NCBI GenBank assembly: GCA_030583805.1
Contig: CP129476.1
Location: 309,453-373,452 of the forward strand
Length of the DNA stretch: 64,000 bases
Reading direction: 5' to 3'
From: Patescibacteria group bacterium
Lineage (GTDB): Bacteria; Patescibacteriota; Patescibacteriia; SG8-24; DYFX01
Shown: in pieces, positions 13,419 to 54,079 of the stretch
Layout of the letters: each line of letters begins with the position of its first letter
Position numbering within the stretch: position 1 is the stretch's first letter
The notes under the pieces: generated by a model
The model's input: only the letters and a program-made list of their open reading frames with translations
The model's database searches: none
Told to the model about the DNA's origin: nothing
Made by a program: the position numbers and the translations under genes

Positions 13419-13489
13419 TCGGGGATCGTCTAATGGTAGGACAACAGACTCTGAATCTGTTTATCTTGGTTCGAATCCAGGTCCCCGAG
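13419..13489 (+). tRNA. tRNA-Gln (anticodon CTG)
   Basis: Hand-folded cloverleaf: acceptor tcgggga/tccccga, D-arm gtc-taatggtag-gac, anticodon stem acaga/tctgt with loop ctCTGaa, T-arm cttgg-ttcgaat-ccagg, discriminator G, encoded CCA at 13490-13492. Confidence 0.85.
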
Positions 13490-13664
13490 CCAAAGAAATT
13501 AAGTTCAGGTAGACCGGAACCTCCGCCCAAAACTGACGGGGTTCCAATAGACCGGAATGCCTGAAATCGAATGTGAAAGCACTGGAGAGATCCGGTGTTT
13601 TCGTTTTGACGAAGCCTTTCCTGAGGGGTACGGTGATGTCCGAATAATAACCCTAATAAAGTGA

Positions 13665-20860: not shown

Positions 20861-21317
20861 TTTTCGGTTTCGAGTTGGCCTCTGTCTCTGCCAGCCCAGT
20901 TTCGCCGCCGGCCGCCTCCGCGAGAAGCGCAACGGATTGTCGGATGATCTCTTTCTGTGTATCCGAGATCTCGACGGGCTCCTGCTGTTGCGGCGCGAGG
21001 AGTTCGACTTTTGTCGCGTATGCGCGGTGGTGGTGCTTGAGCCAGAAGATCACGGCCGTGAGGTTTCCTTCCCTAATGGCAGTCATGAGCTGTGACTCAG
21101 CCATGTCGTTCACAAGACCCGCGCCGGTCTCAACGGCCTCGTCGACGGCGGCGGCGAACGCCGCGTCATCCTTCCGCCAGCGGTAAAATGTTGCGCGGCC
21201 GATCCCGACCTTTTGGCAGGCTCCTTGAACGATCGGCCGCTTGCGTAGCTCTTCGACCAGAACCTCTTTCTGCTTTTCCTGCCGTATGGTGACGGCGTCC
21301 TTCTTCTCAGTCCCCAT
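20814..21317 (-). CDS. terS: Phage terminase small subunit (TerS, HTH + FWLK motif)
   Basis: HTH CQKVGIGRATFYRWRK and NLTAVIFWLKHHHRAY, resembling Terminase_2-family small subunits. Sits immediately upstream of terL. Confidence 0.65.
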   Translation of the reverse strand: MGTEKKDAVTIRQEKQKEVLVEELRKRPIVQGACQKVGIGRATFYRWRKDDAAFAAAVDEAVETGAGLVNDMAESQLMTAIREGNLTAVIFWLKHHHRAYATKVELLAPQQQEPVEISDTQKEIIRQSVALLAEAAGGETGLAETEANSKPKNDGDAGKNSTSKRIS

Positions 21318-22638
21318 ATGAGATGCGTGTGGCCTTGAGGCCTGTCAGGTTCTCCCAGCGCTTCCGGATGACCTCGGCGTACACGGGGCTTTTCTCCATC
21401 AGGAAACATCGGCGCTTGAGCTTCGTCGAAGCGATCAGCGTGCTGCCACTCCCGCCAAACGGCTCGATGACGAGGTCGCCGCGCTTCGTGAGCATCTTGA
21501 TGTATGGAATCAGGATTTCGGTCGGCTTCGTGCCGAAGATGACGCCCTGACCCGAGTGCTTTTCGTCGGACGAGCGGAACTCGATGAAGTCCGTGGGGCA
21601 GTTCTTTTTGCCCTTCTCGTAGGACTCCCATTGCGGCTTGCCGCTGATGGCGTAGAGGGCGGTCTCGTACTCCTCTTGGAGCGGGGCGTCTTCCGGCTCA
21701 TTGTTGTATGGGACGTCGCCTGACGCGCCGACCATGGCGATGTCATGCTTATTGAAGAACCGGTATTTCGACGAGAAGCCCTGATGCCGGTTTTCGAGAT
21801 GCCACACGATCATGTTCTTCACCTTCCAACGCTTCTCCATCTCGTCCCAGATCGTCCGGATGTTCTTCCAGTTTTCAAACACGATGATGGCGAAGTTTGG
21901 CTTGGCCGACGCCGCCACGCTGTTCATCCATAGCTCGGTGAAGTTGTCTGGCAGGGACTCGGTCTCGAGGTAGCGTCGGTCCCGCTTATAGCCGAAGCCG
22001 GTCACCGGATCGCCGTGCTTCTTCTTGCCCTTCAGGTAATCGAGAATGTAAGGTGGGTCCGTCATGCACATGTCGGCCTTCTCGCTGCCCATGAGCTTCT
22101 GGAATTCCGCTTCGACGGTCGAGTCCCCACACATGAGGCGACTGTCGCCGAGCGCCCAGACATCGCCCTTCTTGATCTCGATCTCGTTGATGTCCAATTT
22201 TTCGAGCTCCTTCTGTAGGTCGAACGTCTCTGGCGTATCCTCGACGTCGAAGATGCGGTCGAGTTCTTGACTCGAGAACCCGACGTCGGACAGGAATGAC
22301 TCGTCAAACTTGGCCAGCATTTCCCAATCGAACTCTCCGGTCGTGAGGTTGCTTCGGACGTTATACTCCTCGAACTCTTCCATTGTGAGCTTCCGATTCG
22401 GGACGCGCACGTCGATTTCTTCCTCCCCGCGCCCAAGCGCCAGCAGAATCTTGATCCTCTGATGCCCGGCGATGAGACGATTATCCGTATCGATCGCGGG
22501 GATCTCTACGAGATTGAATCTTTCAAGCGACCGCTTGAGCTGTTCCACTTGCTCGTCGGAAATCTTGCGAGGATTTCCCTCCCACGGCAGGATCTCCGCG
22601 ACCTTTCTTTTCTCCGTAAGCCAGTGAAGGCTGTCCAT
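21307..22638 (-). CDS. ParB-like nuclease N-terminal domain fused to N6-adenine/N4-cytosine DNA methyltransferase
   Basis: LIAGHQRIKILLALG (ParB/Srx fold), MTDPPY (motif IV DPPY) and EPFGGSGST (motif I). 11-nt overlap with the terS start. Confidence 0.85.
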   Translation of the reverse strand: MDSLHWLTEKRKVAEILPWEGNPRKISDEQVEQLKRSLERFNLVEIPAIDTDNRLIAGHQRIKILLALGRGEEEIDVRVPNRKLTMEEFEEYNVRSNLTTGEFDWEMLAKFDESFLSDVGFSSQELDRIFDVEDTPETFDLQKELEKLDINEIEIKKGDVWALGDSRLMCGDSTVEAEFQKLMGSEKADMCMTDPPYILDYLKGKKKHGDPVTGFGYKRDRRYLETESLPDNFTELWMNSVAASAKPNFAIIVFENWKNIRTIWDEMEKRWKVKNMIVWHLENRHQGFSSKYRFFNKHDIAMVGASGDVPYNNEPEDAPLQEEYETALYAISGKPQWESYEKGKKNCPTDFIEFRSSDEKHSGQGVIFGTKPTEILIPYIKMLTKRGDLVIEPFGGSGSTLIASTKLKRRCFLMEKSPVYAEVIRKRWENLTGLKATRISYGD

Positions 22639-23940: not shown

Positions 23941-25662
23941 ATGCCTCAAAATCCTGCCCAACTAAAAGAAGGAGAGCTGCTGCTTCGTGTTGCGGAGCTT
24001 GAATCCGAGATAAAAAAGTTAAAGGAGAGAAAAAAGTACGGTCTCGTCTGGGAGGATCGGTCGGAAGACGTGGTTTTGCAATGCCGCGAAAATGTTCCGA
24101 TTCTTCAAGAATACAAGGCGCAAAAAATCGTCACTGATGAAGCAACGTCCGCAAACATCCTAATCGAGGGCGATAACTATCACGCCCTCTCCGTGTTGAA
24201 CTATACCCATCGAGAGGCTTTCGACGTAATCTATGCCGACCCACCTTATAACACTGGCAATAAAAGCTGGCGGTATAACAACGACTACGTTGAGAAGGAC
24301 GACGATTTCAAGCACAGCAAGTGGCTATCCTATATTCACAAGCGCCTCCTTTTGGCGAAAAACCTACTGACGGATTCGGGCATCCTGATATTTGCTATTG
24401 ACGATTATGAAGCCCACACCCTGCGTCTGCTCCTTGATGAGGTCATGGGTGAGGATAATCGCCTCGGCACGATAGCTGTAGTACACAATCCTCGCGGAAG
24501 AAACGACGATCAATTTTTTGCGACCCAGCACGAATACATGCTCGTTTACGCAAAAGATCATAGCAGGGCTGAAATAGGAAACTTCGAACTCACGGAAGAA
24601 GACCGCAACCAATATAAAAAACATGATGAGATTTCTCCGTACGCAGAAACGTCGTTTATGCGCACTGGAAACAACTCAAACCATCACGAAAGACCCAAAC
24701 TTTTTTACCCCATATTTTTTAATCCGAGAACCCGGAAGCTCTCTCTAAAATTAGAGAAAGGGGGCATCGAAATACTGCCAATCAACGAAGCGGGTGAAGA
24801 GAAAACGTGGCGCTGGGGTAAAGAGACTTTTGAAAGGCTGTGCGACACCGATCTTTTTGTAAAGACTGTTAAGGGCAGGGATCGGATTTTTAAGAAAAGA
24901 AGACTAACGGTCGATACGGGAAAGAAACCAAAGAGCGTCTGGTATAACTCCAGGTATGATGCCTCGACACAAGGCATCATGGTTTTGCAGGACATTTTTG
25001 GCCGCGGCAATCATTTCAATTACCCAAAATCATTGCTCTTGATGGAGGATATTTTGGAGATCACTTCAAAGCCAGACTCGCTAGTCCTCGATTTTTTTGC
25101 TGGAAGTGGCACCACTGGTCACGCCGTTCTCAAGCTCAATAAGAAAGATGGCGGCAACCGTCGCTTCGTACTGTCTACGAACAATGAAAATAAGATTTGC
25201 GAGGAGGTAACCTATGAACGCCTGAAACGCGTTATAAAGGGTTATACGAATAGCAAAGACAAAAATACTGTGGGCCTCGGCGGAAATCTGACTTACTACA
25301 AAACCGCCCTCGTGAGCATCGACCAGCTTCAGAAGGTATCTGACGAAGCAAAAATCAAGATTGCATATCAGGCAGGCGAGATGATTGCCGTCCGGGAGAG
25401 CACGCCGGATGAGTTAGAAAAAAATGACTGGTGGCAGCTGTTCGGGGGAAGCGGAAAAATCATGGCCGTCTACTTCAAGGAGGACAAGGCCAGGCTATCC
25501 GACCTCGTAAAGAAACTCGAAAAAACAGGCCGCCCGGTCGTGCTGTATGTCTTCGGTTGGGGCAAGAACGAATACAAGAACGAGTACGGGTCGGGAAAGA
25601 TCCGCGTCGAGGACATCCCCGAACCTATCCTTGAGGTCTACAAGGAACTGAACCGTCTCTAG
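23941..25662 (+). CDS. mod: Type III restriction-modification system methyltransferase (Mod)
   Basis: DVIYADPPYNTG (motif IV) and DFFAGSGTTGHA (motif I). N6-adenine MTase beta-class layout, followed by res. Confidence 0.9.
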   Translation: MPQNPAQLKEGELLLRVAELESEIKKLKERKKYGLVWEDRSEDVVLQCRENVPILQEYKAQKIVTDEATSANILIEGDNYHALSVLNYTHREAFDVIYADPPYNTGNKSWRYNNDYVEKDDDFKHSKWLSYIHKRLLLAKNLLTDSGILIFAIDDYEAHTLRLLLDEVMGEDNRLGTIAVVHNPRGRNDDQFFATQHEYMLVYAKDHSRAEIGNFELTEEDRNQYKKHDEISPYAETSFMRTGNNSNHHERPKLFYPIFFNPRTRKLSLKLEKGGIEILPINEAGEEKTWRWGKETFERLCDTDLFVKTVKGRDRIFKKRRLTVDTGKKPKSVWYNSRYDASTQGIMVLQDIFGRGNHFNYPKSLLLMEDILEITSKPDSLVLDFFAGSGTTGHAVLKLNKKDGGNRRFVLSTNNENKICEEVTYERLKRVIKGYTNSKDKNTVGLGGNLTYYKTALVSIDQLQKVSDEAKIKIAYQAGEMIAVRESTPDELEKNDWWQLFGGSGKIMAVYFKEDKARLSDLVKKLEKTGRPVVLYVFGWGKNEYKNEYGSGKIRVEDIPEPILEVYKELNRL

Positions 25663-25666
25663 TGAT

Positions 25667-27994
25667 ATGTTTCCACTCAAGCCATTCCAAGAGCAGGCGG
25701 TCGCAAAGCTGAAGAACGAGTTTCTTTCTCTTTGGAAGTCGCCTCACCATAATGTACCGCTCGTCTTCAAGTCGCCAACGGGTTCCGGCAAGACGATCAT
25801 GCTCGCGCAGTTCCTGCGCGACATCGTGAGCGATCCGCGCTTTCAAGGCAACGATGTGGCGTTTCTGTGGTTCTCGTTCAGCGAGGACTCCTACGTCCAA
25901 AGCAAGGAGAAGCTGTTCGCGTACTACGGCGGCGCTTCAGAGCTGGACCTGCTCGATCTGAACGACCTCACCCGAGGCAGGCTTCAGAAAAATAACGTCT
26001 TCTTCATCAACTGGCAGAAGATCAAGGGTAAGTCGAAGGACAGCCGAAAACTACGGCGCGAGAACGAATGGGGCCTGACATTTGATAACGTCATCAATAA
26101 GACCCACGAGGACGGACGCAAGCTCGTGGTCATTATCGACGAGGAACACGTCGGGGCGGATACGGACCTTGCGCTTGAGGTCATCGACGGCCTCATCCGT
26201 CCGAAGGTCACCATACGTGTCTCGGCGACGCCCAAGTACATTCCAAATGCGGAAGAGATCGCCGATGGGAAGGGCGGCTTCGTCAACGTAAAACGGGACG
26301 AGGTGGTTCTGGCCGGACTCATCAAGGAAAAAATTATCTTCCAGACGGAAGAAGACCTCAACAAGAAGGAGTTCAAGAGCGCCGACCAGGACGAGATTCT
26401 TCTTGAGCTTGCTTATCGCAAGCGACTCGATCTGATCCGCTGGTACAAGGAGATTGGCATCGATATCAACCCACTCGTCCTCGTCCAGCTCCCGAACGAT
26501 GATCAAGAATCGAAGACGAATGTCGCAACGAAACGCGGCATCGTTTCCGACTACCTCAAGCGGAAAGGTGTTTCGGAAAGCGAGATAGGCGTTTGGCTTT
26601 CGAATGAAAAGGTGAACCTTGAGAACATCGAGGCGAACGAGTCGCCTGTCTCTTTCCTTTTATTCAAGCAGGCGGCCGCGACCGGCTGGGACTGCCCGAG
26701 AGCGGGAGTGCTCGTCATGTTCCGCGAGATCAAGAACCCGACGTTCGCCATCCAAACGGTCGGCCGCATTTTGCGCATGCCGTTGGGTTCCCATTTTCCG
26801 CGTCCCGAACTCAACGTCGGCTATCTGTACACCAACTATAAAAGGAACGAGGTACTGGCCGAATATGCGAAATCGAAGTCCGACAACCGGCCGGCGATCA
26901 ACGGGAGCTATCGTAAAGCAGACGTGAAGTCGATCACGCTCGATTCGGTCTTCATGAGCCGTACGGACTACAACGACCTAGGCGACACCTTCCAGGCGAT
27001 ATTTGGGACGGCAGCCGATGGTCATTTCGGTATCAGCGACAAAGACGGCAAGCAGACTGCTCTCGATAAGCTCGCCAAGAAAGGCTTCGATACGTCGCCG
27101 AAGGTCACGAACGGCCTCATCGTCGGCGTCGAGATCGACGACTATGACAACTTCATCCAGGAGCTTGTCGCCGAGGGTGCGAGCCACGATCAGGAGATGT
27201 CGGAATACGACCTTGAACGCCTCTACAACCTCCTCTGCTTCAAGCTGATCGCCAAACAGACCGATGAACAAAAGAAGTTCGCGCCCGAGCGCTCTTGGGG
27301 AAAGCTCAAGACGGCGCTCAACGTCTGGATGATCGGACGTACGAGGGAATTCCGCCGGGCTGCCTACAGAATGATCGTCAATGACCTCCTGAACCCCGCA
27401 AGCGTCCTCGCACCGCTCATCGGCTCCTCGTTGGCGCTATATCGCCCTCTTCGAGAGCAAGAAGTGAACAGGCGTTCCGAGCGGTCGAAACGCACAGAGA
27501 CGATTGATCTCCCCCGCGAGGCACTGTTCTTCACTGATCAGTACACGGAGATGAAGGTGAAGAAATGCGCGATGTCGCCCTTCTACATCGAGAAGGACTA
27601 TCAAGGGGAGGATAATGAAAAGGGGTTCATTGCCTTCCTTGAGAGCCATAAGAATGTCCTCTGGTGGCACAAGAACGGTGATATCGGGAGCGAGCATTTT
27701 TCGATCTCGTACTACAACCCGGACGAAAACAAGGAGAGGCTCTTTTATCCCGACTGGATCGTGAAGACGCCTGCCGCCGTCTGGATCATTGACACCAAGC
27801 AGGGAGCGACGGCCGAGCTCGCCGACACCAAGCATAAGGCAGAGGCGCTACAGGCCTGGTTAAAGAGCAGGAAAGGCTTTGCTGGAGGCATAGCCGTTCA
27901 AGACGGCCCGAACGGGTGGAAACTGAACAGGAACTCTAAATACTCCTATGCGCCCTCGTTCACAGGATGGGAAGCCTTTAATGATTTGCTGTGA
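25667..27994 (+). CDS. res: Type III restriction enzyme Res subunit (SF2 helicase + endonuclease)
   Basis: FKSPTGSGKT (Walker A) and VVIIDEEHV (DEEH box). Immediately downstream of mod. Confidence 0.9.
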   Translation: MFPLKPFQEQAVAKLKNEFLSLWKSPHHNVPLVFKSPTGSGKTIMLAQFLRDIVSDPRFQGNDVAFLWFSFSEDSYVQSKEKLFAYYGGASELDLLDLNDLTRGRLQKNNVFFINWQKIKGKSKDSRKLRRENEWGLTFDNVINKTHEDGRKLVVIIDEEHVGADTDLALEVIDGLIRPKVTIRVSATPKYIPNAEEIADGKGGFVNVKRDEVVLAGLIKEKIIFQTEEDLNKKEFKSADQDEILLELAYRKRLDLIRWYKEIGIDINPLVLVQLPNDDQESKTNVATKRGIVSDYLKRKGVSESEIGVWLSNEKVNLENIEANESPVSFLLFKQAAATGWDCPRAGVLVMFREIKNPTFAIQTVGRILRMPLGSHFPRPELNVGYLYTNYKRNEVLAEYAKSKSDNRPAINGSYRKADVKSITLDSVFMSRTDYNDLGDTFQAIFGTAADGHFGISDKDGKQTALDKLAKKGFDTSPKVTNGLIVGVEIDDYDNFIQELVAEGASHDQEMSEYDLERLYNLLCFKLIAKQTDEQKKFAPERSWGKLKTALNVWMIGRTREFRRAAYRMIVNDLLNPASVLAPLIGSSLALYRPLREQEVNRRSERSKRTETIDLPREALFFTDQYTEMKVKKCAMSPFYIEKDYQGEDNEKGFIAFLESHKNVLWWHKNGDIGSEHFSISYYNPDENKERLFYPDWIVKTPAAVWIIDTKQGATAELADTKHKAEALQAWLKSRKGFAGGIAVQDGPNGWKLNRNSKYSYAPSFTGWEAFNDLL

Positions 27995-28644: not shown

Positions 28645-30009
28645 TCATACGTGTGCACATTGTAGTACCGCCACAAACAGACTCTCTACCTCATTCTCGA
28701 TTTCATTAGGCCCAACTCTATAAGACGACGATAAGGGATCCGAAATCACAATATAACCCGTCGGGGCGAAGGCACTAGTTGGCAACATAAAAAACTTCTC
28801 GACCTGCTCAGCGCCGGTGGTATCCACCGCCACTGCCAGTACTCTGTCGAACCAGCGCTGATGCTCCTTGATCAAAAAACACCATCGCCCGATATTGTCT
28901 GGCCCTACGGTACGAGCGGCATAAAGTACGGGAATCATCCGGGCAAAACGGATTGCCTCGGCGGAATCCAAGCCCTTCCGCACTAAGTATGAACGCAGTT
29001 CCTTGAGAACAGATTTGCGCGCCTTCCGAATAGCTCTCTCGCCAGCTTTGCATCTGGATGGGAGAATCCAATAAAGCCTTTCTTGGGCGAGCTCGAAGGT
29101 CTGCTTGTCGATAATTGCTGGAATGGCGTTTTCTGTTTTGATCCATTCGCTACGCGGATTCTTCCGATGTCCCTTCTTCAGCTTATTCCAAGTTTTGTTA
29201 TATACGAGTGTGCCGGTATAGACCTCGTTCATCAGTATTCGAATGATCTTAGTTTTGTTCCATGTCCCGCCATTGGGCGAACGGACTTCCGATGCATTGA
29301 GCATCCCAACGATGCGATCCAAGCCCAGCCGTCTCGTCACGAAATACTGAAAAATATCCTGTACGGTCTGGGTTGTTCCATCATCAGCAGGAACGAATAC
29401 GACACGTTCATTCGCTATGCACTTGTGCTCGCCTTTTCTCAAAACCCGCACCGGCTTCTTATCGATGTCTAGAAGAAATCTGGCCAATCCGAAGCAGGCA
29501 ATGCCACCGTTTGAATAACCCTGCTGTGATGTTCTTATACATCCCTTGGAGACCTTGTCACTAAGCTCGGCGCTGTACTGGCCCGCCATGATTCGATGGA
29601 AAGGATTTTCCATCTGCGCCATCGGTGACTCGTCCGGCTTCGGAAGACCACGAGAGAGGTAGACGACAGGCCTCCCGTGTTTTTTGCAGAGAAACTGATA
29701 ATGAGCTGACTCATCCTGATCTTGAAAGCGCCCCCACCGGGACACGTCGAGGACCAATACAAAGTCGAAGACGGGTGCCTCTGGATTCAAAACCCACTCG
29801 TCAAACAACCTTTGGAATCCAGGTCGCCCGGCTGTGAGGCCACTTTTACCCTCATCGACTTCCTCATGAATGATGTCGATGCTGTGCCGATCGGCGAATC
29901 GCTGTACCTGTTCTCGTTGAATTGGGACCGAATTCTCCTGTTTATCCTCCGCTGAATGACGATAATACGCAACGGCCTTTTTCCTAGTGACGCCTCCAAA
30001 CAAGCTCAT
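28645..30009 (-). CDS. Large serine recombinase (second copy, distinct sequence)
   Basis: AVAYYRHSAEDKQENSVPIQ is the catalytic Ser region. Recombinase domain with a Cys-containing C-terminus. 454 aa. Confidence 0.85.
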   Translation of the reverse strand: MSLFGGVTRKKAVAYYRHSAEDKQENSVPIQREQVQRFADRHSIDIIHEEVDEGKSGLTAGRPGFQRLFDEWVLNPEAPVFDFVLVLDVSRWGRFQDQDESAHYQFLCKKHGRPVVYLSRGLPKPDESPMAQMENPFHRIMAGQYSAELSDKVSKGCIRTSQQGYSNGGIACFGLARFLLDIDKKPVRVLRKGEHKCIANERVVFVPADDGTTQTVQDIFQYFVTRRLGLDRIVGMLNASEVRSPNGGTWNKTKIIRILMNEVYTGTLVYNKTWNKLKKGHRKNPRSEWIKTENAIPAIIDKQTFELAQERLYWILPSRCKAGERAIRKARKSVLKELRSYLVRKGLDSAEAIRFARMIPVLYAARTVGPDNIGRWCFLIKEHQRWFDRVLAVAVDTTGAEQVEKFFMLPTSAFAPTGYIVISDPLSSSYRVGPNEIENEVESLFVAVLQCAHV

Positions 30010-30022
30010 AAGACCGCCTCGC

Positions 30023-30889
30023 TTAAATCAACTCGATCAGTAACTTTTTCAGCTGTTGAAGCATCGGCTTCTCGTCAGTCGAGAACTCAACTGCATTTTT
30101 CTTTTTACCCGCAATTGCTTGGATCAATTCATCGATCAAGAGTGAAAAACCTGATTGCTGAGATCGTTCTTCTAGTTCCTGAATGGTCATGTCCGGGTCG
30201 GTTAGGAACGCGTAGAGTGCGTCTTCGTTCACGGCCGCACGGATGAAGATGCGTTTTAGTGTTCTGATGTCTTGGGCATTGGTAATCACGTCGTAACTGA
30301 TTTTCTCGAAAATGGTGCGGATAATGGCATCGACTTCCAGGTTTTTAATCTTCCGAATCTTGGGTTTCATTTTCAAGAATTCCACCCGATAACTTTCTTT
30401 CAGCTGATAGCGTTCCATCATGGCGATGTGCTCGACATTTTGATCCCGCATTTTTAGAACATAGGTTACTGTGGAGTGTGACAGGTGCAGTGCATCAGCC
30501 AGTTCGACCGTCGATTTATAGCCCATCGCTGATTTGATTTTAACGAAGGCGTTGGAGCGTTCGGCAGGCGTCCACTGGCGCTTGTTGTTTTGAATCTCAA
30601 ATCGTCTCAGCTCGAACTCCCCCGGATCCATTTTCGGATATACTCGGCAAGGAACGGCCGTGAGGCCGATTTCCTTGGCACACTCAAAACGACGGTGGCC
30701 GTCGAGAATCAGGTAACGGTCCTTGTCGATCTCGCTCACGGCCAGGGGCATCTCAATACCCATATCCTTAATTGAGACGAGTAGGCGGTTGTGTTCGCCC
30801 TTTACTCCGAATTCTTTACGAGGTTGGTCGGGATCCATCGCTATCTGGGCAACAGCTATCTCACGAAACACGGGTTTGTATTTTTCCAT
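30023..30889 (-). CDS. ParB-like protein (ParB N-terminal nuclease-like domain + HTH)
   Basis: LILDGHRRFECAKEIG is the ParB box. HTH LADALHLSHSTVTYVL. ATG at 30887-30889; the track ORF begins at an upstream TTG. Confidence 0.75.
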   Translation of the reverse strand: MEKYKPVFREIAVAQIAMDPDQPRKEFGVKGEHNRLLVSIKDMGIEMPLAVSEIDKDRYLILDGHRRFECAKEIGLTAVPCRVYPKMDPGEFELRRFEIQNNKRQWTPAERSNAFVKIKSAMGYKSTVELADALHLSHSTVTYVLKMRDQNVEHIAMMERYQLKESYRVEFLKMKPKIRKIKNLEVDAIIRTIFEKISYDVITNAQDIRTLKRIFIRAAVNEDALYAFLTDPDMTIQELEERSQQSGFSLLIDELIQAIAGKKKNAVEFSTDEKPMLQQLKKLLIELI

Positions 30890-31099
30890 ACAGGACAAAG
30901 AGCAAACGAGTTGTACCCGTTTTTACCCTTTTTTATGTTTTACGCTCGGAGTGATTATTTTCACTCCCGAATGGGAGGAAGTTAACGAAGTGGGTGTTTT
31001 TTGTCAAGAAAATATAGGAGTGTTCGTGACATTGACGCATGGGGCCTGTCAGCGTACAGTTGAGTTATATTTGTACGCATTATAAGCTTACGTAAGACT

Positions 31100-38738: not shown

Positions 38739-41192
38739 TTACAGAAGTCGCAGCCGTTCGCGGATTTCCGCCTCGACGATCTCGCGATCGCGACCGTACT
38801 TGAGACGCGAGAGCTGCTTGATAGCCGCCGTCAGCCGCGTGTCCGGTTTTCGCAGCGGGCCCATCGCCATGTTGAAGGGGCGCGAGGCGGTATTGTCGAT
38901 CAAGAGCTTCGTGTTTGCCGTATACGCTTCGACGTTTACGAGATCGAACGGCGTGAAGACGGGCGCGAATTCCTTTCCAAGGAAGTCGGCATCCTCCGGA
39001 CCGACGCGGAAAGCGACCATCGTACCGACGTTGCCGAAGACCGCGTCGCGAATCGCCGTATCCCCCTTCTGCGAGATCTGGCCGATATATTGGTGCGCGA
39101 TCGTCAGGTCGAGACCGTATTTACGCGCTTCGGAAAGGATCGTCGAAATCGAATCGGTGATGAAGTTCTGGAACTCGTCGATATAGAGGTAGAAGTCCTT
39201 TCGCTCTTCGGCCGACAGGTCGGTGCGCGAGAGCGCGGCCATCAGAATCTTACCGACCAAGACCATGCCGATGAGATACGCGTTCAAGTCGCCGAGCTTG
39301 CCCTTTGAGAGGTCGAGTAGCAGGATCTTCTGCTGATCCATCGCTTCGCGCACGTTGATCGCGCTCTTCTGCTGGCCGATGATCGGCCGGACGATGTCGT
39401 TCGTGATGAACGGCGTGAGTTTCGACGTGATGTACGGAACCATGTTGGCGAGCGAGGCTTCGCCGCCGGCTTTCGACGCTTCCTTCAGCCAGAAATCCTT
39501 CACGACCTGCGTCTTGCACTTCGAAAGCTTGTAGGCGCGGAAACGCTCGTCGGAGAGCACGCGCGGAATTTCCATGAGCGTCGAGCCCGAGGCCGGGTCG
39601 TCCATAACGAGAATCATGGCGTTCCGCATGTATTGCTCGAACATCGGGCCGCCCGTCGACTTGAGGTCGTAGAGCTTGTCGAAGATCTTGAGCATCTCGT
39701 TCACGACGAACGTCTTCTGTTCCGGATAGCGCTCGTCGTATTCAAGGAGGTTCAGCCCCATCGGGCGCTCGGAATCCGCCGGCGAGAAATAGATCACGTC
39801 GTCGGCACGCTCCTTCGGCACGAAGGCCAAGCAATCCTGCGCCAAGTCACCGTGCGGGTCGATGACGCACACGCCGCGCCCAGCCTCGATATCCTGCCGC
39901 ACCATCGACTTGATGAGCTCCGATTTACCGGAACCGGATTTACCGATGATGTACATGTGGCGGCGGCGGTCGGCCTGCTTGATACGGACGGCGTGCTCTT
40001 GGCCGCGATATTTCACAACACCGAGCAAAAGCCCTTCCTTCGGAAGATTCGACGGCGGCGGCGCTTTGCGGGCGGTCAGCCATCGGATGTTGGGCGTTTC
40101 GGTCGAGCTGAGCGGAAGATGCCAAAGGCTTGCGAGCTCGTCCGGCGTCAGCACCATGCGCCGCTTATCGTGGAAAATGCGCAAAATAAAGTCGCTCACG
40201 ATTCGGCTTTTGCCTTCGCTAATCCGCTTGAACGCATTGCCGTATTGCGGGCTCGAAAACTGATTGAAAGCACCGATCAAATTCCCAAGCACGAGCTCCG
40301 CCCGACCCGGCGTCGGCGATGAAGCGACCAGGTTCACGTTGGCGTCGAGTCCGAGCTGACCGACCTTCTCTTCGATCGATTTGACCATTTGCTCCTCGAG
40401 CGGCGACAGGCGGTAGTCCTTGGCCTTCTCGCCTGTCTTTTCCTCTTGCGACGCGCGCTTGATGACGCCCGAACCCTTGCGCGCCTGGGCGTACGAACGC
40501 CCCTGCTGCATGAGCGAGGCGATCTTCACGCCTTTTTCGCGCCAGGATTTCTTCGCGGAGCGCACCAAAATCTGGATTGCAGCGCCGTCGCCCGCCTCGA
40601 CTTTTGCCAGAGCGTTCGTGAGCGCGTTCAAAGGATCCGTCTCCAGTTTCTTGTAGGTATGGATCGGGAAAAAGTTTTCGCGTCCGAAAACGAGATGCGC
40701 GCTCGCGATCGTGCCGTTCGGCTGGAAAACGTTGTAATCGGAAACCTCCTCGATTTGCGCGAGCGGGTACTGGGCGTGCACTTGCTGCTCCATGAACTCG
40801 CGGAAGCGCTTCGGAACGGCGATGTAAAACGAAACGAGGCCGGCCGTCGCCACGATTTCAAAGGCGATGACGTCCCCGCGCCCGGCCAGCCAAGCGCGGA
40901 AGCCCCGTTCGGCCTTGAGGCCGCCGACGCTTTTGAACACGCCTTCCGCCACGGCGATCGCGGCTTGGATCTCCTGCAAAGATTTATCCCGCTGGCCCCC
41001 ATCTTTTTCTCCGGATTCCTTCGGCACCGTGACGAGCAGCACGACGTTATCGAACCCGCGCGCGACCTCCGCTCGGGCAGTCAGGATGCGGCGGATGATC
41101 CGCACGGCGGCCAAAAACGCGAAAAGCCCGAGCACGTACGGCACGGTCGACAGTGCGATCGCCAAAAAATCGGGGACCTGAAACGGATTCAT
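38739..41192 (-). CDS. VirD4/TraG/TraD-like type IV coupling-protein-family ATPase
   Basis: N-terminal TM helices. IIGKSGSGKSELIKSM (Walker A), VIDPHGDL, YIDEFQNF (Walker B-like), and the 817-aa size are consistent with T4 coupling proteins. Confidence 0.7.
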   Translation of the reverse strand: MNPFQVPDFLAIALSTVPYVLGLFAFLAAVRIIRRILTARAEVARGFDNVVLLVTVPKESGEKDGGQRDKSLQEIQAAIAVAEGVFKSVGGLKAERGFRAWLAGRGDVIAFEIVATAGLVSFYIAVPKRFREFMEQQVHAQYPLAQIEEVSDYNVFQPNGTIASAHLVFGRENFFPIHTYKKLETDPLNALTNALAKVEAGDGAAIQILVRSAKKSWREKGVKIASLMQQGRSYAQARKGSGVIKRASQEEKTGEKAKDYRLSPLEEQMVKSIEEKVGQLGLDANVNLVASSPTPGRAELVLGNLIGAFNQFSSPQYGNAFKRISEGKSRIVSDFILRIFHDKRRMVLTPDELASLWHLPLSSTETPNIRWLTARKAPPPSNLPKEGLLLGVVKYRGQEHAVRIKQADRRRHMYIIGKSGSGKSELIKSMVRQDIEAGRGVCVIDPHGDLAQDCLAFVPKERADDVIYFSPADSERPMGLNLLEYDERYPEQKTFVVNEMLKIFDKLYDLKSTGGPMFEQYMRNAMILVMDDPASGSTLMEIPRVLSDERFRAYKLSKCKTQVVKDFWLKEASKAGGEASLANMVPYITSKLTPFITNDIVRPIIGQQKSAINVREAMDQQKILLLDLSKGKLGDLNAYLIGMVLVGKILMAALSRTDLSAEERKDFYLYIDEFQNFITDSISTILSEARKYGLDLTIAHQYIGQISQKGDTAIRDAVFGNVGTMVAFRVGPEDADFLGKEFAPVFTPFDLVNVEAYTANTKLLIDNTASRPFNMAMGPLRKPDTRLTAAIKQLSRLKYGRDREIVEAEIRERLRLL

Positions 41193-43802: not shown

Positions 43803-44363
43803 ATGGACATGAAGAAAGCGGCCCTTGCCGCCCTTGGCTTGGCCGTTGGTTTCGTGGCCGGGTACGGGACGGGTCGCGTCTCGACCGGCACGCCGATCAA
43901 TCCCCTTTCCGGAGGGAAGGGCGGCTACGAAGAGGGATATGCAGCGGCGGCAAAACTCATTGCCGACTCTGGAGTGTTTCCGCCAGCACCGACAGAACTT
44001 TCCTCTTTAAGCGGCGTGGTCGTTGCTGTTGAGGGGCCATCCGTCGCTTTTGACGCCAACCTAACCACACTGAACCCGCTCGTGCAGCTTGAAGGCCCGA
44101 AACGCCGTGTTGTACTCCTCACCGCTGATACGAAGATCGTTCGTATGGAGGAACAGAGCCCGGAGGATTTTGCCCTGTCTCTTGAGAACTTCAACGCAAC
44201 TGTCGCTGCTGGGGAGCCCAGCCCTCCGCCGCAGCTTGCGAAAGAGGTTCCGTACACCTCGCCGCTCAAGGCGGGAGACATGATCACCGTTGCGGCTGCT
44301 ACGAACATCTTGTCATCCGAAATGTTCGAAGCAACCACAATCATCGTCTCCCCCGCTCCGTAA
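43803..44363 (+). CDS. Hypothetical membrane-anchored/secreted protein
   Basis: MDMKKAALAALGLAVGFVAGYG is a signal anchor. No motif I recognise. Confidence 0.5.
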   Translation: MDMKKAALAALGLAVGFVAGYGTGRVSTGTPINPLSGGKGGYEEGYAAAAKLIADSGVFPPAPTELSSLSGVVVAVEGPSVAFDANLTTLNPLVQLEGPKRRVVLLTADTKIVRMEEQSPEDFALSLENFNATVAAGEPSPPPQLAKEVPYTSPLKAGDMITVAAATNILSSEMFEATTIIVSPAP

Positions 44364-44450: not shown

Positions 44451-44969
44451 TTACGGCTGGCCGAATTCGCGAACGTCGGAACAGATGTGCCCGGCTACCG
44501 GGTACTCGAGCGCATTCTTCACCAAGCGGCCGGTGAGGCGCGTCGCGCCGTCGTCGCTGATCTCGAATCGGCCGATCATTTCCACGTAGAGACGGCCGTG
44601 ATCGCCGGGAACGTCCTTCCAGACGTGGAAGTGACCGTCCGAGCGGACGCCCGACTTCTCGAACACGTAGGAACGGGATCCGTCCGTGTTCACGAAGGTC
44701 ACCGTGAAGGTGTACAGGCGCAGCGGCGCAGCGTTCTCACGAACCACGTCGACGTGAACCTCCGAACCGCCGACCGTCACGATCTGCTCGGAGCCGTCCT
44801 GGCAAACCTGGGTGAAACGTTCGATCTCGGCAGCATAGCTGCCTTCCGGGTAGGCGTCGCCCGACCAGGTCGCAGGCTCCGGCGACGCTTCGTCGACGGG
44901 TTCCTGGTTGGAGCCGAAGCACGCCGAAACGATCATGCAGAACGAAAGACAAAGAACGGACTTGAACAT
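44451..44969 (-). CDS. Hypothetical lipoprotein
   Basis: MFKSVLCLSFCMIVSACFGSN contains a lipobox. Start at residue 19 of the track ORF. Confidence 0.55.
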   Translation of the reverse strand: MFKSVLCLSFCMIVSACFGSNQEPVDEASPEPATWSGDAYPEGSYAAEIERFTQVCQDGSEQIVTVGGSEVHVDVVRENAAPLRLYTFTVTFVNTDGSRSYVFEKSGVRSDGHFHVWKDVPGDHGRLYVEMIGRFEISDDGATRLTGRLVKNALEYPVAGHICSDVREFGQP

Positions 44970-45068
44970 GGCATCCTCCTCTTGTGGTACGCGGAATCTA
45001 TCATGGAAACGCCCACTTGTCAAGACGCTCCAAATGCCAAAAACCCCGGTTACCCGGGGCTTTCTTGC

Positions 45069-48000
45069 TCAGTTTTTGATCAAGGCCTTCAGCTCATTAA
45101 GCTCCGCGCGAAGCGCATCGATCTCTTTCGCCTGCGCCTGCACTTCCTGATCCAGCTCCTTGATGGCGTTGATACTGATGTAGGTGAAGTCGCTTGGATC
45201 GACCATGTAAACCTCGGTCCTGGTCGTGTCCTCTGGTTTCAACTTTCGATAATCGGTTCGGACCATGGACGGAGCGACTTTTTGAAGTTCCTGCGCGATC
45301 ACGCCGACGCTCTTATACCCCTCTGGCATTCCGCCCAAACCGTTGTACGTGTAGTTGACCGGATTGATCTCACGAATCACCGAGAGGCCATTTGTATAAG
45401 GGGTCACGTCTTTCTTCAACCGCTCGTCGGACGTCGCCGACCAGCTTCCGCCACCTGGCTTCGCCGCGCCGCCGGAGGCCACATAAATTCCCCAGGCCGT
45501 GGCACCGCTGGCTGAAGCGTGGATCGCCGTGTTCTGCGTGGAGCTATTGGCAGCCGTGAAGACTCCCGCATAGTTGATTCCGGATCCCACCGCGGTCGCC
45601 ACTGAATAAACACCATATCCACCCGAGGTCGTCGCTACAGCATGAAGGCCACGAGAAGAACCGCTGGCATACACGCCAGTGGAACCGGATGTCGCATAGA
45701 GTCCGTAGATGCTTCCTGTCGTTTGAATACCCCAACCACCGACTGCTGCCGCGCCATTCACACCGAGAGTATCCGTAATCCTTACGCGACCCTGCGCATA
45801 AAGCGCTGTGTCGTAGGATTGGAATGCCTGAGCATACAAGGCTGTTCCGCCCGACTGCGATGAGCCGAAGTAACCGCCGTAAGACGTTCCCGCACCGTTC
45901 ACACCTATCGATCCGCCGGCACCATACAGCGCCGTGCCTCCGGCCTGCACCACGGCACTGACGCCGCCGACCGTACCGCGAACGGAGAGCGCCGTGTCAA
46001 ACGATGAGAAACCAACGCCCGTGTTGCTAATACCGATGTAATTGTTGATCTGGCGTCCACGTGCGGCGACCGTATCGAGCGTATCCTCTTCCGCGCCGCA
46101 GTTGTTCCAAGTTCCACCTTCGTAGCAGCGAAGCTTGTTGTTGATGGAGTTGTAATACAGCATGCCGTTCACGCCGGCCGGGTTCACGCCCATGCTGCCG
46201 AGCACGAGCTCGCCGCCGATCGTCGTGCGATCCGTCGTCGCATTGCCGAGCGTCGCGTTATCCGCAACCCAGAATGTGCCGTTCACCGTCAGCGTGGAGC
46301 CGGGACCAGCCAAACCGATACCGACGCGGTTGTTGGCGGCATCGATGTAGAGCGTGTTCGAATCGATGTTGAGGCTGTTCGGAATAGCAACGCTTGATCC
46401 TGTAATCGTCAGGGTGTCGAGCGCCGCGTTACCAATCGTCGTATTGCCGTTGACCGCGAAGTTTTGCGCCGCCGTGACCGTTGCGCCATCGTCCGTCAAC
46501 GTCGAGTTGCCAAGCGTCGTGGCAGCCGTGAATTTCGGAATCGTGTTGACCGAACCGCTTCCCGCCATACCGCCATCACGGCAGTCTTGCCATGCGCCGT
46601 TTTCAAAGCAGCGAAATTTGTTCGTCGTGGTGTTGTAGTACATGCGGCCGTTCGTACCGCCGATATCGTTCGCTGATAGACCGAGAATCAGCGATGCGCC
46701 GTTGCCAATCTGAGCTCCGCTCGAGAAAAGGGCGAGGCCGGAAGAAACGCGAAGTGATGTGAAATCGCCACCCCAGCCGGAACTAGAGCCGCCGTACACG
46801 CCCGCGCCAGATGTCGTCGAATAACCGTAGACACCATAGACGGGCGAGATGCCGTACACGCCGGTGGACTGACCGCTACCCATAATACCGGTGGAGGCGG
46901 CTCCTGAAGCCACGACCTGAACCGGTGTCGCCCCCGCACCCGCATTGTTGACGCTGATAACAGGCACGGAGATCGAGTTCGCATTAAAGACTCCGTAGAC
47001 GCGCATCGCGTACGAGGCATCCGGGGCACCGCCGACGCCAATCGTGGCGCCGTTGTCCCAGATATTCGAGTTGCCCACGACACTTCCGTTTACCGTGAAC
47101 TTCGCGAGACGGTATTGTTCGCCCGTACCTTCGATGCCCGCCTGGCAGTTCACGCCGTTCGCGAGACAAACCGCTTGGCCTCCAGAGTAGATCGTGCCGG
47201 CCGCGCTCACGTTGCCGTCGACATCGACGCTGAAGCGGTCCGTGTTCTCGGCTTGAAGAAGCATGATATAACCACCCGCAAACTGATCGACGTTTCCGTA
47301 AATCAAGTTTTCACCAGGGTTCAGCAACCGCACGTCCGGGCCGCCGAACATCACCATGCCCTCGATATCAACCGTACCGTTTTCGTTCAAAGACATGACC
47401 TGCGAGTTGTCTCCGGCCAGCCAGTAATAGGCGTTCGAGGAGTCGTTATCGGCGTCGATGCGGTAATACATCGAGCCGTCAGCGTACTGATTGAAGGCGT
47501 TTTCACCGGTGCCGTACACTTCAATGCCGCCGACCTGGTTCGTGATCGACATGACCGTACCTCCGGAAACGTTGTTAAACGTCGTGTTCGTGTTGAACGT
47601 CTTCGCGCCGGTAAACGTTTGCGTGTTGTTCAACAAGGCAACGTTGGAGGAAAGACGAGCATCATTCAACGTGCCGGACGTAATGTTGTTGGCATTGATG
47701 TTCGTGATACCGCTACCATCGCCGCCAAGCGCGGCATCAAGGCCGCCTTGCACATGAAGCCTGCCGGGTACGACAACGCTGTTGGTCGAGGAGTACGTCA
47801 TTGAACGCACTCCGTTCGTCACGACCGTCATCGTATCGGCTGACGGGTGATAGATACCGGTGTTCGAATCGCCAGCAAACGTGTAACCAGGCGCGCCTAC
47901 CGAACCGACCGGCACGTACAACGCGCCCGTCGTCACGGCTACGCCGCCGTTGTTCACCGTAAGCCGTTGTACGCCGCCCGTCGTAACGCTGACGTTGTCA

Positions 48001-48461
48001 GTGCTCGCCCAATAAAGGCCCGTGTTCGGGTCACCGCTGAATGTGTATGCGGGGAGACTGACGGAACCTGTTGAAGCGGTGATGGGGCCGGACGTCGTCA
48101 CTGCGCCGTCGATACCCACGCGGAAGCGATCGGCAGCACCTACTTGAAGAAGCATCAAACTGCCAGCCGTAGAAGTACCGCTGACATTTCCGTAGTAAAG
48201 ATTTTGTCCCGAAGCGTTCAAAACGGGGGTGCTAGCGCCGGCCTGGAACGTTGCGCCGAGCTTGCCGTCGCCTGTGACGTTAATGCTCGCATTCTGTGCC
48301 GCGCTCGTAATCGGAATATTTTGAATGACGGCCGGGCTGCAGTTCGGAGGCGTGCAGGTAGGCGCGGCAAATTGCGCGTGTACGCCTCGTGCGCCAAAAA
48401 CCAATGCGATCAAAGCGACGAGCGAAACGAAAATCTTGCGGCCGGTCGTATCGATGCGCAT
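45069..48461 (-). CDS. Large secreted Gly/Thr/Ser-rich fibre-like protein with C-terminal intramolecular-chaperone (Peptidase S74 / tail-fibre chaperone) domain
   Basis: Signal peptide MRIDTTGRKIFVSLVALIALVFGARGVHA. Long degenerate G/T/S/A-rich repeats. C-terminal SDERLKKDV...VNYTY...coiled-coil resembles the endosialidase/tail-fibre auto-chaperone domain. Confidence 0.65.
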   Translation of the reverse strand: MRIDTTGRKIFVSLVALIALVFGARGVHAQFAAPTCTPPNCSPAVIQNIPITSAAQNASINVTGDGKLGATFQAGASTPVLNASGQNLYYGNVSGTSTAGSLMLLQVGAADRFRVGIDGAVTTSGPITASTGSVSLPAYTFSGDPNTGLYWASTDNVSVTTGGVQRLTVNNGGVAVTTGALYVPVGSVGAPGYTFAGDSNTGIYHPSADTMTVVTNGVRSMTYSSTNSVVVPGRLHVQGGLDAALGGDGSGITNINANNITSGTLNDARLSSNVALLNNTQTFTGAKTFNTNTTFNNVSGGTVMSITNQVGGIEVYGTGENAFNQYADGSMYYRIDADNDSSNAYYWLAGDNSQVMSLNENGTVDIEGMVMFGGPDVRLLNPGENLIYGNVDQFAGGYIMLLQAENTDRFSVDVDGNVSAAGTIYSGGQAVCLANGVNCQAGIEGTGEQYRLAKFTVNGSVVGNSNIWDNGATIGVGGAPDASYAMRVYGVFNANSISVPVISVNNAGAGATPVQVVASGAASTGIMGSGQSTGVYGISPVYGVYGYSTTSGAGVYGGSSSGWGGDFTSLRVSSGLALFSSGAQIGNGASLILGLSANDIGGTNGRMYYNTTTNKFRCFENGAWQDCRDGGMAGSGSVNTIPKFTAATTLGNSTLTDDGATVTAAQNFAVNGNTTIGNAALDTLTITGSSVAIPNSLNIDSNTLYIDAANNRVGIGLAGPGSTLTVNGTFWVADNATLGNATTDRTTIGGELVLGSMGVNPAGVNGMLYYNSINNKLRCYEGGTWNNCGAEEDTLDTVAARGRQINNYIGISNTGVGFSSFDTALSVRGTVGGVSAVVQAGGTALYGAGGSIGVNGAGTSYGGYFGSSQSGGTALYAQAFQSYDTALYAQGRVRITDTLGVNGAAAVGGWGIQTTGSIYGLYATSGSTGVYASGSSRGLHAVATTSGGYGVYSVATAVGSGINYAGVFTAANSSTQNTAIHASASGATAWGIYVASGGAAKPGGGSWSATSDERLKKDVTPYTNGLSVIREINPVNYTYNGLGGMPEGYKSVGVIAQELQKVAPSMVRTDYRKLKPEDTTRTEVYMVDPSDFTYISINAIKELDQEVQAQAKEIDALRAELNELKALIKN

Positions 48462-48523
48462 AAGGCGTAATGGTTGATGTGCCCAGTATACCTTATTTCG
48501 CTTAGATCCGACCTTGGGGATAA

Positions 48524-49579
48524 CTACACCCCTTCGTCACGCAATTCCTCAAGCAGCTGTTTGGATTTCCTGGAGAGGTGGCGTGGGGTGCGGATCCGCA
48601 CGCGCACGTAGTGGTCGCCGCGGCCGGAAGCTTGCAAACGCGTGATGCCGCGATGCTTAAGGCGGATTTCCTCGCCCGCTTGGACGCCCGCCGGGATTTT
48701 GACCGTCAGGGAGCCGTCGAGCGTTTCGATTTCCTTTTCGGTGCCGAGCGCGGCGTCGGCGAAACCGATTTCGAGATTGGAGTAAACGTCAAAGCCGTCG
48801 CGTTCGAAACGCGTGTCAGGCTGGATGCGGATGTGCAAGTACAAATTACCGCTCGGCGCGCCGTGCGGCCCAGCTTCGCCGCCGCCTTGCACGCGGATCG
48901 TTTCACCATGATCGATGCCGGCCGGGATCTTGACCGTCATCGACGTTTTCTCGCGCTTCACGCCCGCGCCGCCGCAATCCTTGCATTCCTTTTCCGGAAT
49001 ATTGCCGGCACCGCGGCAAGCGCCGCACGTCGCGACCGCCTCGAAGCTGCCGAGGATCGTGCGCTGCATCTGGCGCACGCGGCCTTGGCCGCTGCACGTC
49101 TTGCAGGTGATCATTTTCGATCCGGGCGGAATGCCGGTGCCGGAACAGGCGCTGCAAGCGACGGGCTTGTACAGCTCCAGCGTCTTTTCCGCGCCGAACG
49201 CTGCTTCGCTGAACGAAATGGTCACGTTGACCTCGATGTCGCCGCCGCGCGCTTGCCTCCGGCCGCCGCGTCCGCCGCCGAAGCCGAACATGTCGCCGAA
49301 CATCTCTCCCAAATCCCCCATGTCGAAATTGGCGCCTTGGAAGCCGCCTTGCCCGAACCCGCCGAACCCCGGTCCGGCCGAGCCGAACTGATCGTACTGC
49401 GCCCGTTTTTTGGCGTCGCCGAGCACTTGGTAGGCCTCGTTGATTTCCTTGAACTTGGCTTCGTCGCCGCCTTCTTTGTCGGGGTGGTATTTGTGCGCCA
49501 AAACGCGGAAGGCTTTTTTGATCTCGTCTTCCGAAGCGCCCTTGCTAATTCCGAGGATTTGGTAATAGTCTTTAGACAT
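48524..49579 (-). CDS. dnaJ: Molecular chaperone DnaJ
   Basis: J-domain with HPD (YHPDK), a G/F-rich region, and four CxxCxGxG zinc repeats. Confidence 0.95.
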
Positions 49580-54052: not shown

Positions 54053-54079
54053 CTAGCACTCAGATTATACGAGTGCTAA
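54053..54079. promoter_or_regulatory. CIRCE operator (HrcA binding site)
   Basis: cTAGCACTC-agattatac-GAGTGCTAA matches TTAGCACTC-N9-GAGTGCTAA. On the reverse strand the N9 spacer contains TATAAT, with TTGACG about 15 nt upstream. Confidence 0.9.

Follow-up and report, generated by a model that had tools for sequence, protein, structure and literature searches.

A predicted phage-tail-fibre-like surface protein encoded beside dnaJ in a small clade of Patescibacteria

The closest described counterparts of the protein reported here are the mosaic adhesive trimer (MAT) proteins of Bdellovibrio, a superfamily of 21 members in which a signal peptide and a conserved, beta-rich N-domain of ~130 amino acids (aa) precede a trimeric shaft (Caulton et al. 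2024, PMC10769870). Thirteen of them finish in an S74 domain and eight in non-S74 tips. MAT proteins are found at the cell surface, and one of them binds prey glycans (PMC10769870). MAT-like proteins were listed in Micavibrio, Omnitrophica, Uabimicrobium and the Fibrobacteres-Chlorobi-Bacteroidetes (FCB) group, and none in Patescibacteria (PMC10769870). Here we describe a gene on a 64,000-nt stretch of DNA (the window; GenBank assembly GCA_030583805.1, contig CP129476.1, positions 309,453 to 373,452 of the forward strand) from a Patescibacteria group bacterium, a member of the Candidate Phyla Radiation (CPR). We consider it fairly probable that the product of this gene is secreted, forms homotrimers and acts as a phage-tail-fibre-like fibre on the surface of the CPR bacterium, analogous in function, and possibly related, to the Bdellovibrio MAT fibres; trimerisation, cleavage, surface location and ligand we infer by analogy. 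An earlier annotation of the window (the original prediction) had read the gene as an S74-bearing fibre in a housekeeping, non-prophage setting, and this reading is supported. The 1130-aa reading frame that it had proposed is borne out by the list of open reading frames (ORFs) and the translation, and lies on the minus strand (coordinates of all features are collected in Table 1). A protein from a Patescibacteria metagenome-assembled genome (MAG) at NCBI is 100% identical to it and carries the automatic name "tail fiber domain-containing protein".

The fibre is a bona fide S74-domain protein. Pfam PF13884 (Peptidase_S74) matches aa 1011-1067 over profile positions 1-57 of 58 (E = 5e-14), and the 52.8 bits of this match lie far above the gathering cut-off of 22, as the original prediction had expected; the isolated C-terminus scores 57.9 bits. 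The predicted Ser-Lys dyad is intact, with S1011 and K1016 in SDxxxK spacing at the start of the domain, and each of the 19 S74-type family members has an S[DS]x[RK]xK motif. When the isolated C-terminus was compared with the PDB, the SDERLK stretch aligned to SDRRIKKD of the long-tail-fibre protein gp37 of phage S16 (6f45, E = 7.6e-6), and the family profile also matched the intramolecular chaperone auto-processing (ICA) domain of MyRF (7dc3); a phmmer search of the PDB with the full-length protein returned nothing, matches being obtained only with the isolated C-terminus or the family profile. The AlphaFold2 (AF2) model is confident at aa 1020-1130 (predicted local distance difference test, pLDDT, 78-87), including a 40-residue terminal helix at aa 1090-1129, where a coiled coil had been expected behind the S74 core. 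In Foldseek searches the best match of the C-terminal domain was again 7dc3 (E = 7.6e-5, TMt 0.66, root-mean-square deviation 3.3 over 121 columns), and further matches were the endosialidase chaperone 3gw6, the GA-1 chaperone 3gud and S16 gp37 (6f45). Phage genomes searched by tblastn matched only aa 1011-1130, at 32-38% identity.

The SDxxxK motif was defined in the MAT study, in which cleavage of Bd3182 was blocked by the substitution S782A and the crystal structure ended at A781, before the catalytic S782 (PMC10769870). For the phage T5 protein pb1, a 133-residue C-terminal chaperone is described as a trimeric intramolecular chaperone (PMC4690869). By analogy, the chaperone of the CPR fibre is predicted to be cut off before Ser1011.

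At the other end of the protein, the signal peptide that had been proposed earlier conforms to sequence rules, with a basic n-region (MRIDTTGRK), a 15-residue hydrophobic core that is the sole hydrophobic segment of the protein, and the junction VHA|QF with A-x-A before the cut. In 27 relatives this A-x-A|QF junction stays at the same position behind signal peptides of variable sequence. Around and behind it, residues A29, Q30, F31, P34, C36, P38, P39, C41, P43, V45, I46, Q47 and N48 are invariant in 27 full-length relatives with identities down to 28%, giving the family-defining signature QFxxPTCxPPxCxPxVIQN. A phmmer search with aa 1-135 alone found 44 proteins (E <= 1e-3) among 1.84 billion cluster representatives, essentially this CPR family together with isolated repeat units, so that the N-terminal module is rare and lineage-specific. 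Two short proteins, P0097 (191 aa) and P0098 (183 aa), have the same signal peptide and QF..PTC..PP.C start and stop after ~150 residues in a Cys tail (...ACCK and ...ACYK, respectively); these may be minimal or truncated family members.

Between the two ends runs a long shaft, preceded by a repeat region (aa 136-223) that is matched by many short phage-like fibre proteins (P0051-P0084). The shaft contains three conserved Cys pairs (432/439, 618/627 and 779/788), which together with 36/41 make four closely spaced pairs and would fit an oxidising, extracytoplasmic destination. The G/S/T/A-rich degenerate repeats of the original prediction are present as recurring units, though not as simple tandem repeats: an NLxYGNV...LLQ...DRF unit occurs twice (aa 87-127 and 385-424), as do beta-hairpin motifs of the form YYN..N.K.RC.E.G.W..C (aa 605-627 and 766-788), and short GxYG-type repeats fill aa 520-560 and 830-1000. 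Self-BLASTP of the protein found no internal repeats, and these units were read by eye and from the family searches. AF2 gives confident beta segments at aa 440-480, 600-630 and 760-790, the rest of the shaft being of low confidence as a monomer. Known trimeric fibres lead one to expect a poor monomer model of an intertwined trimer, and the low-confidence shaft is consistent with such a trimer.

It had been suggested earlier that a surface fibre had co-opted a phage chaperone. The S74 chaperone is supported, but the phage likeness is not confined to it, as the shaft has tail-fibre repeats and the PHROG tail-fibre families 5481, 5668 and 1980 match aa 839-1129, with PHROG 14572 and 28766 also matching the fibre. 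These repeats and matches suggest a whole phage-like fibre to which an export signal and a new N-terminal module have been added.

Conservation is unevenly distributed along the protein. From 57-74% at aa 31-120, identity to the reference declines to 13-17% at aa 931-990 and recovers in the S74 domain; aa 901-1000 form the most divergent stretch and show the highest rate of nonsynonymous substitution (dN, 0.33-0.45). This gradient has the polarity of a receptor-binding fibre, with a constant mounting end and a variable end that would become the free tip once the chaperone is removed.

The distal end also differs in kind among family members. On the family N-terminus we found three types of end: S74 with a coiled coil in 19 proteins, a module of ~190 aa with a coiled coil in five (P0004, P0005, P0006, P0020 and P0022; motif C.DIAEVY...PGDVV...STSPG...ALAGRVPVKV...PGDLLTSS..PG.AMKA), and a Cys-rich knob in four (P0017, P0021, P0087 and P0088; C.CPNG.F in three of the four, and ...YC[YR]K[PF] at the end of every one). 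P0005 and P0021, both with non-S74 ends, occupy the same locus between dnaJ and cysS. The ~190-aa module has no sequence match in Pfam, PHROG or the PDB, and BLASTP against a PF11962 protein was insignificant; its model (pLDDT 88, from an alignment of 37 sequences) most resembles, among PDB structures, the autochaperone at the C-terminus of phi29 gp12 (3gqh, E = 1.7e-5; 3suc, E = 3.1e-5). On this modelled likeness, orthologues at a single locus seem to replace one phage autochaperone for trimerisation by another, which would be hard to explain unless the C-terminal module assists the assembly of a trimeric fibre.

A gp12-like module of ~150-190 aa (DxAE..PGDV..STxPG..ALAGRVPVKV..PGDLLTSS..PGxAMKA) is also found in many environmental proteins (P0116-P0149), among them P0117, a partial protein labelled Candidatus Woesearchaeota (DPANN archaeon). 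Searches with this module and with the N-terminal 266 aa gave only proteins of about query length, mostly fragments, and served for repeat assignment and a deeper alignment rather than for the breadth of the family.

The gene lies in a housekeeping region. In minus-strand order, the controlling inverted repeat of chaperone expression (CIRCE), hrcA, small genes of the heat-shock operon, dnaK, a gene on the opposite strand and dnaJ precede the fibre, which is followed by a lipoprotein gene, a gene for a small membrane-anchored protein (opposite strand), cysS, two small ORFs, a VirD4/TrwB-like ATPase gene, orf236 and dnaX. The dnaJ and lipoprotein neighbours named by the original prediction were thus confirmed. 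A pattern scan across 185,579 GTDB species, each represented by one genome, gave relatives of the fibre in only 11 genomes; dnaJ is directly upstream in all 11, and the array dnaK-dnaJ-fibre-cysS-VirD4-like-orf236-dnaX is kept wherever the contig reaches. Three further metagenomic contigs have the same dnaJ-fibre locus, and independent look-ups of P0002, P0003, P0005, P0011, P0012, P0019 and P0024 agree on it. The chromosomal, non-prophage setting of the original prediction, with its hrcA, dnaK, dnaJ, cysS, VirD4-like and dnaX flanks, accordingly recurs in the 11 genomes and three contigs. Within a small CPR clade, the fibre gene belongs to the core, occupies a single locus and is inherited vertically; it is not prophage cargo.

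The genomes of the 11 relatives are titled Patescibacteria or Minisyncoccota, with some third-party annotation (TPA) MAGs labelled "uncultured Gammaproteobacteria". The CPR-type dnaJ-fibre-cysS-VirD4-like locus is present in records titled "uncultured Gammaproteobacteria bacterium" (TPA) and "Candidatus Baltobacteraceae bacterium" (L010, L012-L015, L017, L018 and L020). The DnaK or VirD4-like proteins of these loci are 83-96% identical, and the taxonomic labels or the binning of the records are probably wrong.

Given its PHROG tail-fibre matches and S74 domain, the protein might instead be the tail fibre of a domesticated or decaying prophage, a tailocin or a contractile injection system, assembled in the cytoplasm. 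Beside tRNA-Gln, at about 13.6-31 kb, the window indeed has a mobile or prophage-remnant/defence island, with a large terminase and serine integrases (Table 1); its GC content at third codon positions (GC3, 0.54-0.60) is below that of the housekeeping genes. The claim that no phage genes flank the fibre therefore holds for at least 14 kb on either side, where we found no phage genes, including tail, baseplate and capsid genes, but not for the window as a whole. The island lies beyond the block that is syntenic in relatives, whereas the fibre keeps its dnaJ-cysS position in every genome examined. A signal peptide and conserved Cys pairs do not suit a cytoplasmically assembled fibre, a scan of 2.9 million viral contigs in IMG/VR found none with the fibre N-terminal module, and a ratio of nonsynonymous to synonymous substitution rates (dN/dS) of 0.1 excludes decay. 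We consider this origin very unlikely, and because neither the gene context nor the signal peptide is that of a virion component, we do not assign the protein as a virion tail fibre.

The phage-like architecture could also serve in defence against phages, the protein being a decoy or defence factor that imitates their receptor-binding proteins, and one source describes CPR genomes as poor in classical defence systems (PMC6509639). Since the fibre has no PADLOC match, its locus no defence-island context and the idea no precedent, such a role seems extremely improbable.

The fibre evolves faster than nearly all flanking proteins: across genomes, identity to the proteins of the window is 38-72% for the fibre and 56-96% for the flanking proteins. 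By the Nei-Gojobori method, dN/dS of the fibre against its two closest orthologues is 0.10-0.11, as compared to 0.05 for dnaJ, 0.03-0.045 for the VirD4-like gene and 0.07-0.08 for cysS, values that are rough as dS exceeds 1 and is saturated. The gene is clearly maintained by selection. This overall purifying selection, together with the single copy, the fixed core-like locus, a possible co-transcription with dnaJ and the lack of a recognisable lectin or adhesin domain at the tip, would also suit a general structural element of the envelope, such as a spacer, a surface-layer-associated fibre or a sheath component, that has kept a phage-type folding device and recognises no specific host. We regard a structural element of this kind as unlikely: with a purely structural role, there would be little reason for close orthologues to exchange distal modules or for conservation to be lowest at the distal end, and the fibre also outpaces nearly all of its neighbours in divergence.

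The likeness to the S74 subgroup of MAT proteins, such as Bd3182, extends over the whole design. Both kinds of protein are encoded by non-phage chromosomal genes and reach ~1000 aa, with a signal peptide, an N-terminal module conserved within each family and a long shaft; both end in a C-terminal S74 domain with SDxxxK and have relatives that carry non-S74 ends on a common chassis; and both belong to producers that live by attaching to other bacteria, which for the CPR organism is our inference. They differ in that one of the alternative CPR ends is an autochaperone of phi29-gp12 type, in that the CPR producer belongs to the Patescibacteria, and in that the surface location of MAT proteins was shown by experiment whereas that of the CPR fibre is predicted from sequence. 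The patescibacterial envelope is assumed to be of the monoderm type.

Phage tail fibres and tailspikes, as represented by K1F endosialidase (3gw6), T5 pb1, S16 gp37 (6f45) and GA-1 gp12 (3gud), share with the CPR fibre the S74 profile match, dyad and fold, a G-rich shaft before the cleavage site, tail-fibre repeats near the N-terminus, and a conserved N-terminus with a variable C-terminus. Unlike them, the CPR fibre has a signal peptide and paired cysteines, and is inherited vertically beside dnaJ, outside any virion structural module. The MyRF ICA domain (7dc3), which is the closest structure to the C-terminal domain, represents another non-viral use of an S74 unit that trimerises and cuts, although MyRF is a eukaryotic membrane-bound transcription factor with a different role and no fibre. 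The phi29 gp12 (pre-neck appendage) autochaperone (3gqh/3suc), the best fold match of the P0004, P0005, P0006, P0020 and P0022 ends, which are likewise terminated by a coiled coil, is absent from the fibre of the window and occurs only in orthologues at the same locus; here the likeness is one of structure, without a sequence match.

Several observations weigh against the interpretation as a retained, MAT-like surface fibre. Among the 1.84 billion representatives no sequence similarity of the N-terminal module was detectable outside this small family, which leaves its homology to the Bdellovibrio MAT N-domain unproven. Membership in the MAT superfamily hinges on homology of that domain, and the sequence searches argue against close relatedness. 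Bdellovibrio has 21 MAT paralogues, the CPR genomes a single locus and copy. The AF2 monomer model of the full fibre is poor (mean pLDDT 52) and leaves the N-terminal module unmodelled, so that it permits no statement on the N-terminal fold. Positive selection on the fibre was considered and is unsupported, with dN/dS at or below 0.22 in every 100-codon window and dS saturated. Finally, we found nothing recognisable as an anchor, be it a lipobox, an LPXTG motif, a wall-binding domain such as SLH or a second transmembrane segment, and the fibre could for this reason be released and not retained.

If released, it might be a soluble fibre or tailspike-like protein acting on neighbouring cells, for instance a factor that binds or depolymerises polysaccharides, or an agent resembling a bacteriocin; endosialidases (3gw6) are an example of enzymes that also make use of S74 domains, and Pfam describes the family as "Chaperone of endosialidase". 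We judge this to be quite improbable, since no catalytic or toxin domain was detected in the fibre in Pfam, NCBIfam (in which the protein has no match at all) or PHROGs, the invariance of the N-terminal module points to a conserved partner on the producing cell, and the MAT proteins that provide the precedent are retained on the surface.

For the surface fibre that we favour, the following sequence of events can be proposed. The pre-protein would be exported by Sec, and signal peptidase I (SPase I) would cut after Ala29, as suggested by the canonical signal peptide and the conserved position of the junction. From its family membership, the last 120 residues (S74 core and coiled coil) would then trimerise and template the folding of the G-rich, beta-helical shaft. 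Ser1011, activated by Lys1016, would cut the chain before Ser1011, releasing the chaperone as a fragment of about 13 kDa and exposing a tip that ends ...GGGSWSAT, in analogy to Bd3182. Scaled from the ~550 Å model of Bd3182 (PMC10769870), the fibre would by our estimate be roughly 50-70 nm long. The N-terminal module (QFxxPTCxPPxCxPxVIQN and ~100 aa) would hold the ~980-residue fibre on the cell, while the fast-evolving distal end would contact the ligand, most plausibly a surface structure of the bacterium on which the CPR cell lives. Retention and ligand contact are proposed because of the conservation gradient, the swapping of tip modules and the Bdellovibrio precedent.

Table 1. Features of the fibre gene, its surroundings and the distant island (positions in the window; aa, residues of the fibre protein)
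Feature	Position	Strand	Basis or remark
Fibre gene	45069..48461	minus	ATG start, 1130 aa, stop codon 45069-45071; ORF list and translation
Signal peptide, aa 1-29 (MRIDTTGRK / IFVSLVALIALVFGA / RGVHA)	48375..48461	minus	Hydropathy and A-x-A rule; predicted SPase I cut after A29
Invariant mature N-terminus, aa 30-48, QFAAPTCTPPNCSPAVIQN (Cys36/Cys41), family signature	48318..48374	minus	Alignment of 27 sequences
Conserved N-terminal module, aa 30-130, proposed cell-proximal retention end	48072..48374	minus	Best-conserved part of the protein; AF2 low-confidence
Two phage "tail fibre repeat" units, aa 136-223 (P.YTF.GD.NTG.Y...AD....T.G..R)	47793..48056	minus	PHROG 28766 match at aa 185-220; AF2 pLDDT 75-85
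Fibre shaft, aa 224-1010, G/S/T/A/N-rich	45432..47792	minus	Composition and Cys positions
Distal variable region, predicted mature tip, aa 800-1010, GxYG-type repeats	45432..46064	minus	Family identity, dN, PHROG matches
Predicted intramolecular chaperone, aa 1011-1130: S74 core (1011-1067), beta-rich linker, coiled-coil helix (1090-1129)	45072..45431	minus	Pfam, PDB sequence matches, Foldseek
Catalytic motif S1011-D-E-R-L-K1016	45414..45431	minus	Ser codon 45429-45431, Lys codon 45414-45416
Hairpin CCCCGG-GTAA-CCGGGG then TTTTT, 10 nt past the fibre stop	45044..45059	minus	Sequence and palindrome scan
dnaJ-fibre spacer, 62 nt	48462..48523	minus	Without terminator-like hairpin or sigma-70 consensus
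dnaJ	48524-49579	minus	Directly upstream of the fibre
Lipoprotein, 172 aa, lipobox VSAC	44451..44969	minus	Translation; downstream of the fibre
tRNA-Gln	13419-13492		
KAP NTPase	13665-16700		Matches PADLOC PifA
Serine integrase	16690-17985		
Large terminase	19370-20932		PHROG 38, E 1e-72
ParB-DNA methyltransferase	21307-22638		
Type III restriction-modification mod/res pair	23941-27994		
Second serine recombinase	28645-30009		
ParB-like	30023-30898		

The short spacer makes it possible that the fibre is co-transcribed with dnaJ, and the hairpin with its T-run 3' of the fibre is probably an intrinsic terminator. Farther upstream, a CIRCE inverted repeat (CTAGCACTC-N9-GAGTGCTAA) stands at 54053-54079, at the start of hrcA, with one mismatch and none expected by chance; the heat-shock cluster upstream of the fibre is thus probably HrcA-controlled. 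The lipoprotein gene has a promoter-like sequence of its own (TTGACA-17-TAGATT at 45023-44995) and is fast-evolving (dN/dS about 0.30). At its position a homologue is found in L002 and L003, a lipoprotein unrelated in sequence in L007 and nothing in others, S74-type loci included. We considered it as an obligatory partner of S74-type fibres and rejected this, as it occurs in some S74-type loci only and is missing from several; the lipoprotein is a variable accessory neighbour and not a fixed partner.

Convergent with the fibre/lipoprotein unit, a gene at 43803-44363 (plus strand) encodes a small protein with one N-terminal membrane helix (MDMKKAALAALGLAVGFVAGYGTGRVSTGTPINPLS...). This protein was detected in seven of the eight GTDB loci whose contig passes the fibre gene (L014 not scored) and has no match in Pfam, PHROG or PADLOC. 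The VirD4/TrwB-like ATPase (817 aa, 38739-41192, minus strand) has TrwB_AAD_bind and TraG-D_C matches, a precomputed DUF8128 match, and weak PADLOC mad8 and HerA matches; it is 82-93% identical across the clade and always lies a few genes from the fibre. The title of a bioRxiv preprint reports a patescibacterial type IV secretion system.

In two more distant family members, P0024 and P0019, dnaJ and the fibre gene are separated by a gene for a polytopic membrane protein of 169-170 aa (L021 1475-1984 and L022 2328-2840), which lies 4-10 nt ahead of the fibre gene; this protein is a candidate membrane partner or anchor of the fibre, and no such gene is present at the dnaJ-fibre position in the clade of the window. 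Two further candidates were rejected: a fibre paralogue in the window, as tblastn of the window returns the fibre gene alone, and a template/variable repeat of the kind used by diversity-generating retroelements, as no nucleotide repeat of the fibre gene occurs anywhere in the window.

That a phage fibre and its S74 chaperone can be re-used as a cellular surface fibre is already known, having been published in 2024. Since this principle is published and the protein itself is deposited under an automatic name, the advance made here is incremental and not categorical. What is new is a CPR-specific, single-locus fibre family with an invariant N-terminus, strict dnaJ adjacency and an exchange of S74, phi29-gp12-type and Cys-knob ends; full-text literature searches returned no prior description linking CPR with S74, tail-fibre-like or MAT proteins. 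The exchange would place two unrelated phage autochaperones at one orthologous chromosomal locus.

An episymbiotic lifestyle is reported for all cultivated Patescibacteria in one account (PMC12206443). Because of this lifestyle and the Bdellovibrio precedent, the producer is probably an episymbiont that attaches to a host bacterium by its fibre. More tentatively, and with considerable doubt, the fibre may be the primary host-recognition organelle of this CPR clade, its swappable tip setting which bacterium can be attached to and its N-terminus defining a new mode of mounting fibres on the patescibacterial envelope; the fibre would then do for a cell what a receptor-binding protein does for a phage. 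How CPR cells find and hold their hosts is a largely unknown process, for which that account names type IV pili as the main candidates so far (PMC12206443). The fibre locus now provides a concrete, sequence-defined candidate for CPR host recognition, in which a phage-like receptor-binding fibre would be re-used by a cell, and as tip modules differ between close relatives, tip type can be correlated with co-occurring hosts in metagenomes. The MAT-fibre concept would also reach beyond proteobacterial predators into a phylum whose envelope is very different.

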